Positions 55,513 to 60,068 of a DNA stretch of 64,000 nucleotides are shown one piece after another; position 1 is the stretch's first letter; the number at the start of each line of letters is the position of its first letter. Below the pieces are notes generated by a model, which did no database searches, was not told the DNA's origin, and worked only from the letters and a program-made list of their open reading frames with translations. The stretch spans positions 416,001 through 480,000 of the forward strand of contig MTLY02000003.1 in assembly GCA_002011035.2 (NCBI GenBank), in the 5' to 3' direction. This DNA is from Candidatus Hecatella orcuttiae. GTDB lineage: Archaea > Thermoproteota > Bathyarchaeia > Hecatellales > Hecatellaceae. Both the position numbers and the translations under genes were made by a program.

Positions 55513-55824
55513 GTGTTTTCCAGCGCCTTTAAGCGTACACTTTGGTGGATGATAGCCGGAACGAGGGGAGGGGTAACCCGGGGAAAAATAATCCTCGCCT
55601 TGAAGGAGAGGCCTTTGAACGCCAATCAGCTGGCTGAGCTTCTTCAACTACACTACAGGGCTATCCGCTTCCATCTGGAACTGCTGGTTGACAACAACAT
55701 CCTCACCAATGCTGGGGGTAAATACGGGGCGGTTTATTTTCTTTCCCCAGAGATTGAGTCAAACTGGGAGCTCTTCAAGGAAATATGGAATCGCCTCCAA
55801 AGGATAGATAAAAAGAAAGGGTGA
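55513..55824 (+). CDS. Archaeal ArsR-like winged-helix transcription regulator
   Basis: LWWMIAGTRGG.TR, NANQLAE.L.L.Y..IRFHL..L, YGAVYFLS. Confidence 0.82.
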   Translation: MFSSAFKRTLWWMIAGTRGGVTRGKIILALKERPLNANQLAELLQLHYRAIRFHLELLVDNNILTNAGGKYGAVYFLSPEIESNWELFKEIWNRLQRIDKKKG

Positions 55825-55859: not shown

Positions 55860-56111
55860 ATGACTTTAGAGAGTGGTGTGCATATAGTTTCTCATATTGT
55901 TCAAATAACCATCACCCTGATAATTATCTACTATTTCATTCAAAATTATAGGGCCATAAGGTCAAGGTTTAACTTAGGTCTCATTCTCTTCGCCGTGGCC
56001 ATGTTGTTTCAGATTGTTTTCGCTTGGTCTTTGCACATCCCTCTCCATCTTCTGTCGGAAACGTTTGAGATAGCGGCGCTTTTGATCTTTTTAAGCCTTA
56101 TAAGACGGTGA
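55860..56111 (+). CDS. Small three-TM membrane protein
   Basis: Hydrophobic 83 aa with NYRAIRSRFNLGLILFA; directly follows the wHTH gene. Confidence 0.65.
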   Translation: MTLESGVHIVSHIVQITITLIIIYYFIQNYRAIRSRFNLGLILFAVAMLFQIVFAWSLHIPLHLLSETFEIAALLIFLSLIRR

Positions 56112-56140: not shown

Positions 56141-56222
56141 ATGTCTATATAGTTAAAATATTGTATAGACGTAAAAGCTAAATATCTTGAATTTATAATT
56201 AATTTGTAACAAATTTATAATA
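56141..56222 (+). promoter_or_regulatory. Inverted repeat, BRE-TATA and three 11-bp direct repeats upstream of the cupredoxin operon
   Basis: ATGTCTATA-N14-TATAGACGT (56141-56172); AAAAGCTAAATA (56173-56184); AATTTATAATT AATTTGTAACA AATTTATAATA (56190-56222). Confidence 0.55.
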
Positions 56223-56234
56223 GATGGATGACAT

Positions 56235-57089
56235 TTGAGCGACAGCCCTGCGGAAATACCTCCCGCCTCCGAAACAGCAAAACCTTCCCCGCTTAGGATG
56301 ATGGCAGAAGCCTTAAAGCTACATCGCCAAGGGAAGCCTTTGGCTAAGGATGATGTAATCTCCCTCTTCTTCTCGATGGCTGATTATGTGCACAAAGCTT
56401 GGAAGGCAGGCCTCAGTAAAAGAAGCGAATGCGCCTATGCAGGTTCTCTGCTTCTCTACGAGACGCTGAAAAGGACAGGCTTCCGATTTGCCTCCGACGT
56501 GGAGGATGCCAATCGAATCTGGAAAGCTGGAATGAAGCTGGCGGAGGAAATTTGGAACAAGCTTGAATCTTCCAGGAATAACCCGCTCTCGGGTGAAGGT
56601 CTGAGCTTTAAGGAGGAAATCCAAGCCATGTCCTCTCTACTCTGGGAGGAATACCAAAAGGTAGCTAACCCTCCTGCAGGTCAAGTGGAAGGAAAAGGAT
56701 TGACTGAAGTTTTCAGAAAGGCGGTTGAATACGTCGAAGCTGGAAAAAAGGAGGGGCTTCAAGAACATCAGATCCAGATGCAGTTACCTGAGTTTAGACA
56801 TGGACGATTCCGCGTAAACAGAGTTTACAGTTTCGACCCTCTTATCCTGGGAATGCATCTGAACGATGAGGCAAGACTCAGGTTTAATCCAAAGGTCAAA
56901 AAAACCGTGGAGGATTTCGCAGCTAGGCGGGGTTTAAGGTTTCAACCCTCAAGCTTTGACATCTACCTTCTCAAGGGAGAGAAGAAGGTGGCTTGGCTTA
57001 GGGAGGATTTCTTTGGGGCGTCAACCCCGGAGCTTTTTGAGGAGATAGGCCGCATAATCTACGGCTCAGCCCTCAGGGATGATGAATGA
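56235..57089 (+). CDS. Hypothetical soluble protein, first gene of the cupredoxin operon
   Basis: 284-aa ORF, ATGA overlap with the next gene; no family recognised. Confidence 0.65.
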   Translation: MSDSPAEIPPASETAKPSPLRMMAEALKLHRQGKPLAKDDVISLFFSMADYVHKAWKAGLSKRSECAYAGSLLLYETLKRTGFRFASDVEDANRIWKAGMKLAEEIWNKLESSRNNPLSGEGLSFKEEIQAMSSLLWEEYQKVANPPAGQVEGKGLTEVFRKAVEYVEAGKKEGLQEHQIQMQLPEFRHGRFRVNRVYSFDPLILGMHLNDEARLRFNPKVKKTVEDFAARRGLRFQPSSFDIYLLKGEKKVAWLREDFFGASTPELFEEIGRIIYGSALRDDE

Positions 57090-59059
57090 AGAAAAATCAT
57101 CTGCTGTCCGTCGCCGTAATCGTCATCGCCTTGGTTATTCTTGGTTACGCCCTACCGGTAACAGGGCGGATGAGCGAAATAATCCTAACAGTCGAAGAAG
57201 AATCCGGCCGGCTGGCTGAAGCTGATTCTTCACCCAAGATCATAGAGATCACCGCGAAAAGGTTCACCTTCGAACCCAACATCATTCACGTAAAGCTGGG
57301 AGAGGAGGTAATCTTCAGGATAAAGAGCGCGGATGTCACCCACGGATTCTACATCGACGGCTACGATTACTTCGTAACCATCCCCCCGGGAGAAGTCGTG
57401 GATGTGGGGCCGATAATTTTCGACGGACCGGGTAAATTGAAGATAAGATGCGCGATAACGTGCGGGCCTCTGCATCCATTCATGGTTGCGGACATACTCG
57501 TGGAGCCCAATTATGTTTTCCCAGCCTTCATCTTCTTAACGTTAGGCATGTTCGGGGCCACCACTCTCTACATCAGCCGAGGGCCCAGTAACCGAATGCT
57601 GGGAGTTCCCCTTGACAAGGATGTTGACTTGCTGAGGGTTAAGATCGTAGGGCCTATTTTGAAGAAGATTCTCCAATGGAGGGGTATCCACTTTGCACTC
57701 ATCTGGCCAAACCTTCTGATCTTTATGATCGTCTTAACAACAGCATTCTTCGGTAATCCAACAGGAAACAAGAACTTCTCCATAGCGGTAGTCTGGATAC
57801 TTTGGTTTGCCGCTGTTGAATTTATGATACTCTTTGCTGGAAGACTATGGTGCACTGTCTGTCCTCTACCGGCTTTCGGAGAATGGCTTGCAAGAAGAAG
57901 ACTTTACGGTGTTCACAGTCTGAGAAAGTGGCTGTCTTTGGGAAAAAAGTGGCCTAAAAGCTTGAACAACATGTGGATACCGGCCTTCGGTTTCTTAGGA
58001 ATATCTCTCATCGTTCCTTGGCTTGTCACAAGACCCGTAGTGACCGGGTTTTTGTTCCTCATACTTATAGTGCTCCCTTTGATTCTACATCCAATTTTTA
58101 CCCGGAGATATTTCTGTCGCTCTGTCTGTCCGGCGGGCGGATACATAGGCCATCATTCTAACGCTTCGATCCTCGCTATTAGATGCCGGAATAAAACTGT
58201 CTGCGATAAGCATGTGGCTAAAGAGTGTATCGGTGGAAGTCCCAAAGGCTACGGTTGCCCTTGGGTGCTCTATCCGGGTGGCAACGACCAGAACACCTAC
58301 TGCGGTCAGTGTTTTGAATGCCTCAAATCTTGTCCCTTAGACAATATGACGCTGAAGCTGAGGATGATAGGCCAAGACCTAGCTAACCTAGCAACCAAAG
58401 CCAAGGACAAGTTTGATGAGGCGTGGATGGATTTCATCAGATTTACCTTGGTCATCACTTACCAGCTGGTCTTTTTCGGCCCCTACTTCTGGTTTAAAGA
58501 CTGGGGTAACATGGGGAATATCTTCGGAGCTAACCTGGCCACCATAGGACTTCTCACACCTTCTTTCCAAGGACTGAGCAACTGGTTCGGATGGGCGGTG
58601 ATAGTGGGTGGCACTGCATTAGTAGGCTATCCTGCCCTGTTCTACGCCTTCTCTTGGCTGGCGAAGAAGACTGCCGGCGATGTTGAACACGCACCTAAAC
58701 AAGTCTTCCTCTCTTTCAGCTACGCCTTGACTCCCTACAGCCTGTTCCTTTGGCTGGCATTCGCCATCACCCTCGTAACCGTTAACTGGGCATATCCCCT
58801 AACGGCTTTTTCCGATCCTCTGGGGTGGGGTTGGAATCTGCTGGGAACCCGGTTTGCATGGAGACCAATCCTTCCGGATTTTCTGCCCTACTTCCAGCTA
58901 CCGATTGTTCTTGTAGGGCTAGCTTTGGCGGTGAACAGCACCTACAACATCGCTGTGAGACTCTTCGGCGACCACGCTAAGGCTCTGAGAGCATCAACGG
59001 TCATGGGTGTTTTGCACACCCTTGCCGCCTTGGTTTTCATCTGGATTATATCGGGGTGA
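57086..59059 (+). CDS. CuA-type cupredoxin fused to a polytopic 4Fe-4S membrane protein (NapH/NosR/RdxA-like)
   Basis: DVTHGF...CAITCGPLHPFM (H + Cx3Cx3Hx2M); then TMs with WCTVCP, FCRSVCP, GCP, CGQCFECLKSCP. Confidence 0.8.
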   Translation: MKKNHLLSVAVIVIALVILGYALPVTGRMSEIILTVEEESGRLAEADSSPKIIEITAKRFTFEPNIIHVKLGEEVIFRIKSADVTHGFYIDGYDYFVTIPPGEVVDVGPIIFDGPGKLKIRCAITCGPLHPFMVADILVEPNYVFPAFIFLTLGMFGATTLYISRGPSNRMLGVPLDKDVDLLRVKIVGPILKKILQWRGIHFALIWPNLLIFMIVLTTAFFGNPTGNKNFSIAVVWILWFAAVEFMILFAGRLWCTVCPLPAFGEWLARRRLYGVHSLRKWLSLGKKWPKSLNNMWIPAFGFLGISLIVPWLVTRPVVTGFLFLILIVLPLILHPIFTRRYFCRSVCPAGGYIGHHSNASILAIRCRNKTVCDKHVAKECIGGSPKGYGCPWVLYPGGNDQNTYCGQCFECLKSCPLDNMTLKLRMIGQDLANLATKAKDKFDEAWMDFIRFTLVITYQLVFFGPYFWFKDWGNMGNIFGANLATIGLLTPSFQGLSNWFGWAVIVGGTALVGYPALFYAFSWLAKKTAGDVEHAPKQVFLSFSYALTPYSLFLWLAFAITLVTVNWAYPLTAFSDPLGWGWNLLGTRFAWRPILPDFLPYFQLPIVLVGLALAVNSTYNIAVRLFGDHAKALRASTVMGVLHTLAALVFIWIISG

Positions 59060-59463
59060 ATGAAGTGATGAAGAAAACTGTACTGTTGTGGGAAAGCATT
59101 GCATTGCTCTTGGTAGTCGTCGCTGTGGCCGCGTTTTTCCTTCCTTTGGCAGATGGGATTTTCATGCCGAGGGAGCCGGACGAGATTGTGGTAAGGATGA
59201 GCATCAAGGAAAGCGGAGGCTTCGACCCCGAAGTCATAACCGTGAAGAAAGGGCAGACTGTCCGGTTGGTCCTCATAAGCATGGATGTTTCCCACGGCTT
59301 CACTGTCGAAGGCCTTGACATCGACGTGAAGATTGTTAATCCGGAAAAGAAGGTGGTGGTGGAGTTCACACCTGAGGAAGAGGGAGTCTACATGTTTAAA
59401 TGTACAGTTCAATGCAGCCCCCTCCACCACTACATGAGGGGACTGTTCATAGTGGAGGGTTAG
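59056..59463 (+). CDS. Membrane-anchored CuA-type cupredoxin
   Basis: TM anchor, FDPEVITVKKG, DVSHGF...CTVQCSPLHHYM. Confidence 0.82.
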   Translation: MNEVMKKTVLLWESIALLLVVVAVAAFFLPLADGIFMPREPDEIVVRMSIKESGGFDPEVITVKKGQTVRLVLISMDVSHGFTVEGLDIDVKIVNPEKKVVVEFTPEEEGVYMFKCTVQCSPLHHYMRGLFIVEG

Positions 59464-59465
59464 AG

Positions 59466-59993
59466 ATGAAAAACAGCGTCTTAGCTCGGTTGTTGAAATT
59501 TCCGCCTTTGGTTTTCTTTCTTCTCCTGATCCTAAGCTTCACCGCCTTCCAAGGATACGTTTCACTTGTAGGAGTGGGGGAAGCGGAAGAGTTTCCACAC
59601 ATGGAACCGATAGTCACGACGGATAGCGAAACCTATTCCAGAGACTCTTTTGTGTACATCCACGTCAAGGTCAGTACGCATCCTCATGAGCATGTCCATG
59701 AGGAGGAGGCTGTGGTAGAGGAGCATGTCCATGAGGAGGAGGCTGTGGTAGAGGAGCATGTCCATGAGGAGGAGGCTGTTTTTGAAGGAGCTGAAGTTAT
59801 CCTCATCATCTACGACCCAGAAGGTAACGTGTTTGCAGACCTGAGAGGAATAACCAATCAAGATGGAGAGATGATGTTTGAGGTTTACATAGGAGCTGAT
59901 GACCCGACCGGCATCTACACTATCATCCCTGAAGCCAGCTTCAAAGGCTCACCTATCGTGATAGGGGAAACAGCCTATTTTAGAGTGACTTGA
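59466..59993 (+). CDS. Membrane-anchored Ig-like protein with His/Glu-rich repeat insert
   Basis: Start placed at ATG 59466; N-terminal TM, TDSETYSR, IYDPEG, GITNQDG, PTGIYTI; internal EHVHEEEAVVE repeats. Confidence 0.7.
   Translation: MKNSVLARLLKFPPLVFFLLLILSFTAFQGYVSLVGVGEAEEFPHMEPIVTTDSETYSRDSFVYIHVKVSTHPHEHVHEEEAVVEEHVHEEEAVVEEHVHEEEAVFEGAEVILIIYDPEGNVFADLRGITNQDGEMMFEVYIGADDPTGIYTIIPEASFKGSPIVIGETAYFRVT
59688..59779 (+). repeat. 33-bp tandem repeat (about 2.8 copies) encoding EHVHEEEAVVE
   Basis: GAGCATGTCCATGAGGAGGAGGCTGTGGTAGAG twice, then a partial third copy, identical at nucleotide level. Confidence 0.95.
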
Positions 59994-60068
59994 GAAAGGC
60001 TGAAAAGCAGTTTTTCTCAGATGATTTCTCCTTTAACCCCGCGAAATATTTTTTCGGCAGAAAATCTG

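Follow-up and report, generated by a model that had tools for sequence, protein, structure and literature searches.

The 64,000-nt stretch of the Candidatus Hecatella orcuttiae genome analysed here (positions 416,001 to 480,000 of contig MTLY02000003.1; hereafter the window) carries a four-gene module built around two proteins with CuA-type copper ligand motifs and a NapH-like polyferredoxin (ORF1 to ORF4; Table 1). All four are on one strand, in an interval bounded by a gene for nucleoside-diphosphate kinase on one side and a divergent H+-pyrophosphatase gene on the other. ORF1 and ORF2 overlap by 4 nt, as do ORF2 and ORF3, and the ATG of ORF4 at 59466 is placed 2 nt past the stop of ORF3. 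This ATG aligns with the starts of two relatives and is more likely to be the true start than position 59400. A first-pass annotation, made from the letters alone, had described four close-packed genes encoding a soluble protein, a CuA-NapH-like fusion, an anchored CuA protein and a His/Glu-rich Ig-like protein, and the layout, motifs and structural models all bear this out. It had also taken the system to be undescribed. However, the same gene set has been published for Methanoperedens, in the accounts given in PMC4683180, PMC5690323 and PMC13079737, and for Archaeoglobus fulgidus AF0141-0144, in that given in PMC4543118. ORF2 and ORF3 belong to this family, already in print as the haem-copper oxidase subunit II (HCOII)-NapH-HCOII genes of Methanoperedens and as AF0142-AF0144.

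Table 1. Features of the module and of its surroundings, in window coordinates
Feature	Position	Strand	Description
ORF1	56235-57089	+	284 aa, predicted cytoplasmic, family not recognised
ORF2	57086-59059	+	657 aa: anchor helix, outward CuA cupredoxin (predicted), NapH-like core, five-helix C-terminal extension
ORF2 CuA cupredoxin domain	57221-57508	+	Residues 46-141; ligands H86, C122, C126, H130, M133
ORF2 NapH-like core	57683-58405	+	Residues ~200-440; four helices, CxxCP, Cx3CP, ferredoxin-like domain
ORF2 C-terminal extension	58412-59056	+	Residues ~443-657; five helices; invariant outer loop D577-P578-x-G580, W583
ORF3	59056-59463	+	135 aa; N-terminal anchor helix and CuA cupredoxin
ORF4	59466-59993	+	175 aa; longest frame from 59400; LKFPP anchor, Ig/MG-like beta-sandwich, His/Glu insert
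33-nt tandem repeat in ORF4	59688-59779	+	Perfect, 2.8 copies, encodes EHVHEEEAVVE units
Winged-helix (ArsR/HTH_5-like) protein	55513-55824	+	HTH_5 23.9 vs 22 bits
83-aa hydrophobic protein	55860-56111	+	Open reading frame, no Pfam/NCBIfam match
TTTATA...TATAAT A/T-rich stretch	56192-56221	+	14 nt before ORF1 start; consensus scan
Hairpin	59990-60020	+	At ORF4 stop; scan

Both cupredoxin domains keep the full set of CuA ligands in their translations, and the copper centre itself is predicted. The motif reads H86 ... C122-x3-C126-x3-H130-x2-M133 in ORF2 and H80 ... C116-x3-C120-x3-H124-x2-M127 in ORF3, and the pattern Cx3Cx3Hx2M occurs genome-wide in only four open reading frames (ORFs), all of them in the window module or its paralogue. 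ORF3 exceeds the Pfam cut-offs for Cupredoxin_1 (42.8 vs 27 bits) and COX2 (27.2 vs 22 bits). With the NosZ, CoxB and SoxA models, both proteins align to the CuA end, each time below the model cut-off; the NosZ models are matched only there (positions ~480-578), and the NosZ propeller was not found. An AlphaFold model of ORF2 (pLDDT 89.5, pTM 0.90) was built from an alignment of 59 sequences, comprising the window protein and 58 near-full-length fused forms selected from the 123 homologues found at E<=1e-3. The N-terminal domain of this model superposes on the CuA domain of the Thermus thermophilus ba3 oxidase with a root-mean-square deviation (rmsd) of 1.0 A over 89 columns at 38% identity, and a VIA comparison gave a Z of 14.3 and an rmsd of 1.9 A over 95 residues for the same pair. 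Both fold searches with ORF2 returned matches to the cupredoxin domain, none of which informs on the membrane part.

The ligands are widely kept among relatives. Across the fused homologues H86 is found in 59/59, C122 in 55/59, C126 in 59/59, H130 in 54/59 and M133 in 53/59. We also gathered 80 related loci, in which ORFs were called crudely and clustered; a polyferredoxin is present in 72 of them, and 67 hold a total of 110 CuA-domain ORFs. The exact motif occurs in all 29 separate upstream CuA ORFs and in 53 of the 61 downstream ones. Four of the eight exceptions (L017, L029, L050 and L064) are truncated at contig ends, whereas L015 has Leu in place of Met, L031 carries a variant and L010 and L011 have lost the ligands. 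In these last two loci, both from Archaeoglobaceae, the second cupredoxin (L010:5525-5962 and L011:5741-6133) is left without any CuA ligand, while the fused first domain keeps its own. Many downstream CuA proteins in the related loci are fused to one or two haem c motifs.

The membrane part of ORF2 is of the NapH type only in a broad sense. The protein scores above the cut-off for Fer4_5 (PF12801; 27.9 vs 22 bits) and far under those of the NapH/MauN models (TIGR02163, 29.5 vs 213.05 bits; NF007013, 25.3 vs 234 bits), and no FMN_bind match was found in it at E<=0.1. The model has 11 helices: an N-terminal anchor helix that precedes the cupredoxin, a second helix behind it, and then nine more. 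The CxxCP (C256, C259) and Cx3CP (C344, C348) motifs lie on Arg/Lys-rich loops. C256 is kept in 58/59 sequences and C259, P260, C344, C348 and P349 in 59/59, and each cysteine of the ferredoxin-like domain (C373, C381, C391, C406, C409, C412 and C416) is kept in 53-59/59. The positive-inside rule applied to the model, together with the co-fold contacts described below, would place the Fe-S domain in the cytoplasm and both CuA domains outside. Given that the alignment has no invariant His column in the membrane part, it is reasonable to regard ORF2 as probably haem-free. The haem-free conduit from inward Fe-S to outward CuA proposed in the first-pass annotation is thus consistent with the invariant columns and with the predicted topology.

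ORF2 and ORF3 are also predicted to bind each other, and the co-fold evidence for their pairing is new here. A controlled co-fold gave an ipSAE of 0.78 (three runs, 0.77-0.79), against 0.00 for the best control. For comparison, 116 of 157 solved complexes attain this mark, as do 2 of 215 mismatched pairs; the counts are only approximate here because custom alignments were used in the co-fold. The runs agree on at least 99% of contacts, and the partner has a pLDDT of 84. The anchor helix of ORF3 is predicted to pack on residues 199-229 of ORF2 (helix 200-222), and its soluble domain to contact the outer loops 480-489 and 578-585, the region that holds the invariant D577, P578, G580 and W583. 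Further contacts, between ORF2 83-85 and 124-127 and ORF3 76-79 and 118-121, involve the stretches that flank the CuA ligands. The prediction supports a complex in which ORF2 binds ORF3 and the two putative CuA sites stand face to face.

The same genome encodes a second, split module on the minus strand of contig C2 (169208-160546; locus L007), and there the probable client is part of the operon. The order is CuA (215 aa), polyferredoxin (486 aa), CuA (133 aa) and a 160-aa Cys-containing protein, followed by genes for a molybdopterin alpha subunit of 1154 aa with a twin-arginine translocation (TAT) signal, an Fe-S beta subunit and a NarJ-type delta chaperone, and then by an ArsR gene. Most neighbouring genes overlap or abut, and the genes of the molybdoenzyme are translationally coupled to those of the module. 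For the alpha subunit the top match is Kuenenia NxrA (7B04_B), with 1133 bits over the full length (residues 6-1153); the next matches are perchlorate reductase at 200 bits and Escherichia coli NarG at 154 bits. Neither an EB_dh nor a NarI-type subunit was seen in this operon. The two modules share 44-49% identity and fall in separate, well-supported clades of a FastTree phylogeny of the polyferredoxin core (73 rows, SH-like support only), and a recent duplication within the genome was rejected on these grounds. The paralogue groups with L054 (support 100), away from the window copy.

The window copy belongs to an archaeal clade of 11 rows (support 100), in which its nearest relative is L012 with 75% core identity. 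Five of the nine other loci of this clade have a reductase-type enzyme beside the module, four of them a molybdoenzyme and one a fusion of a CuA-like cupredoxin with a cytochrome-d1 propeller. In L014 the genes for alpha, beta, EB_dh and delta subunits follow directly downstream of the module, and L015 has an alpha subunit downstream; L010 and L011 have alpha and EB_dh upstream. The propeller protein (L017:1442-3211, from a Thermofilaceae metagenome-assembled genome) has 589 aa and matches Cytochrom_D1 at E 4.5e-99; it scores 136 bits against the clade III L-NosZ model, whose cut-off is 700, and its gene stands directly upstream of homologues of ORF1, ORF2 and ORF3. L013 and L016 are short contigs. 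Among the other loci, L035 has the order alpha, beta, delta, EB_dh, CuA, polyferredoxin, CuA, which is that of Methanoperedens.

Nothing comparable lies beside the module in the window. Profile and ORF scans of the window found no haem-copper oxidase subunit I (the sole COX1 match of the genome is on contig C2), no NosZ propeller, no NosD and no crude ORF with a CxxCH motif, in agreement with the first-pass annotation. An oxidase or N2O reductase was not found beside the module, and the operon has no TAT-exported type II DMSO-reductase-family enzyme in a profile search. The claim that the CuA proteins have no partner therefore holds for the surroundings of the window copy; it does not hold for the system at large, since the paralogue is operonic with an Nxr/Nar-type enzyme and five of the nine clade loci have a reductase-type enzyme. 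The annotation had named as evidence against its own reading that homologous operons routinely carry a known terminal reductase or oxidase that simply lies elsewhere in this genome, and this is so in part, in the C2 paralogue and those five loci, with L009 and L012 remaining orphans.

The host genome is 97% complete by marker genes and has a varied respiratory gene content. A haem-copper oxidase subunit I is encoded at C2:55013-56476 (207 bits; locus L008, C2:54521-56587). By gene content the host is thus not a strict anaerobe, and the first-pass description of the archaeon as probably anaerobic is not supported. A subunit II gene lies directly upstream, in which the CuA ligands have been lost: the protein reads VTYGF and STEYSGPYHPHM at the ligand positions, with Tyr for the first His and Ser for both Cys. 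Quinol oxidases likewise have a subunit II without CuA. We rejected the idea that the module feeds the host oxidase through CuA, given that the oxidase subunit II lacks the ligands. Cytochrome c maturation (Ccm) genes and three multihaem ORFs with 10, 17 and 7 CxxCH motifs are found at C2:85001-98149; a need for copper carriers for want of c-type cytochromes was rejected on this account. A Nuo-like gene set is present too, as is a Psr-like TAT molybdoenzyme that comes with an NrfD-type anchor of its own. Searches of the genome did not find cytochrome d1, a multicopper oxidase or NirK, NosD, PCuAC or a bc-type cytochrome b (PF00033). Of the enzymes that the first-pass annotation had proposed to look for, the NosZ propeller and NirK were indeed not found, whereas a COX1 was.

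Homologues of ORF2 at E<=1e-20 are scarce in the class: a single one of 200 other sampled genomes encodes one, and none of 13 from the same family does. This rarity suggests that the modules were acquired by horizontal transfer. They add to a set of respiratory genes in this host that is rare in the sampled class, comprising the Nxr/Nar-type enzyme, the oxidase and the multihaem cytochromes.

Taken with the gene order and the predicted complex, we consider it probable that the window holds an orphan of a plug-in module for CuA-based electron delivery, and that ORF2 and ORF3 form one haem-free membrane complex. Quinol would donate electrons at the NapH-like core, or a cytoplasmic donor would do so via the inward Fe-S clusters, and these would be passed to the CuA site of ORF2. 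From there they would move to the CuA site of ORF3 and on to an exported reductase. Along such a path the CuA domain would do the job of the FMN-binding domain in NosR and PceC, and that of NapG for NapH. The likeliest clients of the window copy may be the Nxr/Nar-type enzyme encoded on C2 or the multihaem cytochromes, and the copy is perhaps regulated differently from its paralogue. A forward direction, from quinol or ferredoxin through CuA to the enzyme, is favoured by analogy with the nitrate-reducing habit of Methanoperedens and by the redox potentials given below.

Several points weigh against this proposal. Copper binding, the direction of flow, the donor and the acceptor are all predictions, and no cofactor is evident that would lead across the membrane from the Fe-S clusters on the inside to CuA on the outside. 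As to whether the host makes quinone, MqnA was not found in the genome, and MenA stays below its cut-off (52 vs 102 bits). CuA assembly, for four sites in all, raises a similar difficulty, in that the genome search found no PCuAC and only a Sco match below the cut-off. For the Methanoperedens proteins, homology is taken from how they are described in print; no such name appears among the 120 matches listed for ORF2 or among the 120 listed for the paralogue. No reductase is found beside the window copy, nor in the long flanks of L009 and L012. A molybdopterin subunit is present in the flanks of only 7 of the 80 loci (L010, L011, L014, L015, L031, L035 and L044). A clade of 36 Chloroflexi rows sits among genes for two-component systems, PCYCGC proteins, multicopper oxidases and P-type ATPases, and loci of the FCB group and Desulfobacterota adjoin unrecognised CxxCH proteins, some of them also Cus efflux genes. 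These mixed neighbours argue against a purely nitrate-linked role and suggest that the module serves several settings, as do modular NapH-like proteins (PMC8238504).

The Chloroflexi loci in particular raise the alternative that the module handles copper, reducing or oxidising it or passing it on outside the cell, with the polyferredoxin as electron source or sink. Their typical gene order is PCYCGC protein, CuA, polyferredoxin, CuA-haem c fusion, LuxR-type response regulator and histidine kinase, and an adjacent LuxR-type two-component pair is usual. Multicopper oxidases, CcdA-like proteins, Lgt and P-type ATPases are often near (L070-L085 and others), and most rows of the clade have, within 9 kb, a PCYCGC/CYCXC protein, a CopA/CueO-like multicopper oxidase or an HMA P-type ATPase. 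In Anaerolineae the context of the module looks like a copper-stress island. Elsewhere, L032 and L043 continue behind the module into Cus-type efflux genes (HMBD and CusA/B/C-like), and in L012, the closest relative in the genome collection, an ArsR gene and a P-type ATPase lie 1.5 kb upstream. In the fold comparison, copper proteins of other kinds come close to CuA: VIA gave a Z of 12.9 for CupA, a binuclear Cu(I) chaperone, and of 14.0 for a copper-bound Cupredoxin_1 protein of Bacillus anthracis, compared with 14.3 for CuA. Cupric reductase activity is known from CcoG, a polyferredoxin of similar general type, and the His/Glu-rich insert in ORF4 is a further point in favour. However, the domains conserve the full electron-transfer ligand set of CuA (two His, two Cys and Met), and identity is 38% to a true CuA domain and 17-22% to CupA and the Cupredoxin_1 protein. 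The linked genes in the clade of the window copy are those of respiratory enzymes, its operon contains neither a copper pump nor a multicopper oxidase, a search of the genome did not find the latter anywhere, and the ORF4 family has no conserved metal ligand. We therefore regard copper handling as unlikely.

It is also conceivable that electrons flow inward, with the CuA proteins accepting them from an oxidising enzyme outside the membrane or another external donor (nitrite via the exported Nxr-like enzyme, or a metal) and passing them into the membrane or cytoplasm, much as proposed for FtrB and the polyferredoxin FtrD. In support of this, the alpha subunit of the paralogue operon is closest to nitrite oxidoreductase and the genome has an oxidase. 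The N-terminal domain of ORF2 matches FtrB in fold (Z 13.8), and FtrD-like domains occur in L021 and L028. Moreover, in the Planctomycetota/Desulfobacterota/FCB clade the module is preceded by a protein of ~430-500 aa with one N-terminal CxxCH motif and by a weakly plastocyanin-like protein (clusters of 16 and 15 loci), besides the downstream CuA-haem c fusions. The former, found in Gram-negative bacteria and among others in L020, L021, L026, L028, L032-L034, L037, L039 and L043, has no family match and presumably resembles fused cytochrome-porins. Behind the module in L022, L025 and L030 are genes for a GltD-like flavoprotein, a Rieske protein, a cytochrome b and a multihaem cytochrome. Nitrite lies at about +430 mV and CuA at about +250 mV. 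On these potentials transfer from nitrite to CuA would be uphill, and a copper carrier is unlikely to pass electrons to the host oxidase, whose subunit II is without CuA ligands. The module is best documented in Methanoperedens, which reduces nitrate according to PMC4683180. Inward flow thus seems to us an improbable account of the module. Less probable still is the reading of the first-pass annotation, a self-contained conduit whose outward CuA centres reduce an external acceptor without a partner enzyme: it would suit the orphan arrangements in the window, L009 and L012, and A. fulgidus is described as expressing AF0141-0144 without nitrate respiration (PMC4543118), but CuA relays single electrons from a buried position and is not known to have a substrate site, and half of the nearest relatives as well as the paralogue in the same genome are tied to catalytic enzymes.

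Returning to the delivery module, the window operon has two further genes, ORF1 and ORF4. ORF1 has no Pfam, NCBIfam or usable protein Atlas match, and its Atlas structure rows all have TM <= 0.33. Homologues occur in 6 of the 80 loci (L012-L017), where the N-terminal ~135 aa are conserved ahead of fused modules in other archaea; the C-terminal ~130 aa are unique to the window copy. Its alignment has 10 invariant columns, none of which is Cys. The model of ORF4 (mean pLDDT 60) shows one transmembrane helix and a beta-sandwich broken by a disordered His/Glu stretch. Pfam and NCBIfam returned nothing beyond a weak MG2 match (E 0.01), and a Foldseek search of the PDB listed Ig/MG-type rows alone, without any at E<=0.001, as for a generic Ig/MG sandwich. 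In L010 and L013 similar proteins are encoded 3' of the module; they have the LKFPP anchor and the beta-sandwich in common with ORF4 and lack the His/Glu stretch, and the alignment of this three-member family has no invariant His, Met or Cys. The suggestion that the module brings its own copper chaperone is not borne out by this family, in which the fold is generic and the His/Glu repeat specific to the window. We infer that ORF1, on the inside, and ORF4, on the outside, are lineage-specific accessories. The 2.8 repeat copies in ORF4 are read from one assembly. Contigs from four public DNA runs have no differing letters, but all of them break at this repeat.

A gap of 123 nt separates ORF1 from the two upstream genes, and it is uncertain whether the winged-helix protein or the 83-aa protein belongs to the module; neither has a homologue in the 80 related loci. 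The former had been put forward as the dedicated regulator of the system. This is not supported, given that the translation of this ArsR-like protein contains no Cys and that it scores 23.6 bits against a cut-off of 55 with the metalloregulator model NF033788. The A/T-rich stretch ahead of ORF1 might possibly be an archaeal TATA box (the consensus scan found 6 sites where 4.6 were expected), and the hairpin at the stop of ORF4 might possibly mark the end of the operon (7 sites, 5.4 expected).

Descriptions of CuA usually confine it to the point where electrons enter two classes of enzymes, haem-copper oxidases and NosZ. Here it is predicted on a free-standing membrane relay that belongs to a large family: the core of the paralogue has 886 cluster representatives at E<=1e-30, from archaea and many anaerobic bacterial phyla. 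To our knowledge, no member has been purified or studied biochemically. Such a relay could explain the membrane link of outward-facing Nar/Nxr enzymes that have no NarI-type anchor, and it bears on how the NapH/NosR class moves electrons and on why strict anaerobes keep genes annotated as oxidase subunit II. More tentatively, the family may be a general, haem-free copper counterpart of cytochrome c and membrane reductases, with a head-to-head CuA-to-CuA wire on a NapH-like Fe-S core that can be plugged into various exported enzymes and that, as an orphan, carries ferredoxin-level electrons out of the cell; we think this possible but doubtful. Candidate partners are the Nxr/Nar type in the host and Methanoperedens, the CuA-d1 propeller protein in L017 and, as reported in PMC4543118, nosZ in Ferroglobus. 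No literature reports of CuA-to-CuA transfer, or of CuA replacing the FMN domain of NosR, turned up in our searches, and for a CuA/NapH-like fusion only the papers on the Methanoperedens and A. fulgidus modules did.

The two window proteins share motif and fold with haem-copper oxidase subunit II and the C-terminal domain of NosZ. Unlike these, they have neither a subunit I nor a CuZ propeller attached or adjacent. The comparison with NapGH concerns the other half of ORF2, since both have a Fer4_5 membrane core with CxxCP and Cx3CP motifs and cytoplasmic Fe-S cysteines, whereas ORF2 has 11 helices instead of four and the window operon contains no NapG or NapAB. NosR and PceC are NapH-like proteins with an N-terminal extracytosolic domain that binds flavin mononucleotide (FMN), and are described as modular, working with various oxidoreductases (PMC8238504). 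ORF2 is likewise built from an outward redox domain N-terminal to a NapH-like Fe-S membrane core. It differs in having a CuA cupredoxin in place of the flavinylated domain, in its C-terminal extension of five helices and in its partner, a further CuA protein with an anchor of its own. The FtrABCD iron uptake system also has a periplasmic cupredoxin, FtrB, for which inward electron flow is proposed in the account of PMC11966278. FtrB and the N-terminal domain of ORF2 superpose with an rmsd of 1.7 A over 88 residues at 9% identity, but FtrB is not a CuA site, and the permease and P19 protein of that system are both missing at the window module.

The closest known counterpart is in Methanoperedens. 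The nar operon there comprises NarG, NarH, NarJ, Orf7, HCO II, NapH and HCO II, all highly transcribed, and an unusual membrane-bound nitrate-reducing complex was proposed in which the NapH-like protein has nine helices, five of them extra at the C-terminus (PMC4683180). HCOIIa, HCOIIb and NapH have been called potential membrane anchors in PMC5690323, and similarly in PMC13079737. By its published description (PMC4683180) the module has CuA, a nine-helix NapH-like protein and CuA in the same order as ORF2-ORF3, and it comes with a Nar enzyme and chaperone much as the C2 paralogue does with its TAT-exported Nar/Nxr-type enzyme. The first CuA protein of Methanoperedens is separate, whereas in the window it is fused to the NapH-like protein. 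The window copy further differs in having no molybdoenzyme, Orf7/EB_dh or NarJ beside it and in the addition of ORF1 and ORF4.

The archaeon A. fulgidus, from a different phylum, provides a parallel for the orphan state. AF0143 encodes a NapH homologue with nine transmembrane helices between two CuA subunit II genes, the module is induced with carbon monoxide and sulfate, and its inward [4Fe-4S] sites were proposed to accept electrons from ferredoxin; homologues in Ferroglobus adjoin nosZ (PMC4543118). ORF2 matches an A. fulgidus protein with 42% identity over 92% coverage (E 3.4e-139), and the 90% cluster of this match also holds AAB91081 ("4Fe-4S binding") and AAB91082 ("cytochrome C oxidase, subunit II, putative") of strain DSM 4304. 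In DSM 4304 the module is split into separate genes and is backed by transcript evidence, and the account in PMC4543118 reports no homologue of ORF1. Like the window copy, the A. fulgidus module is an orphan as to nitrate respiration, and the fused form of the protein is found in a strain other than DSM 4304.

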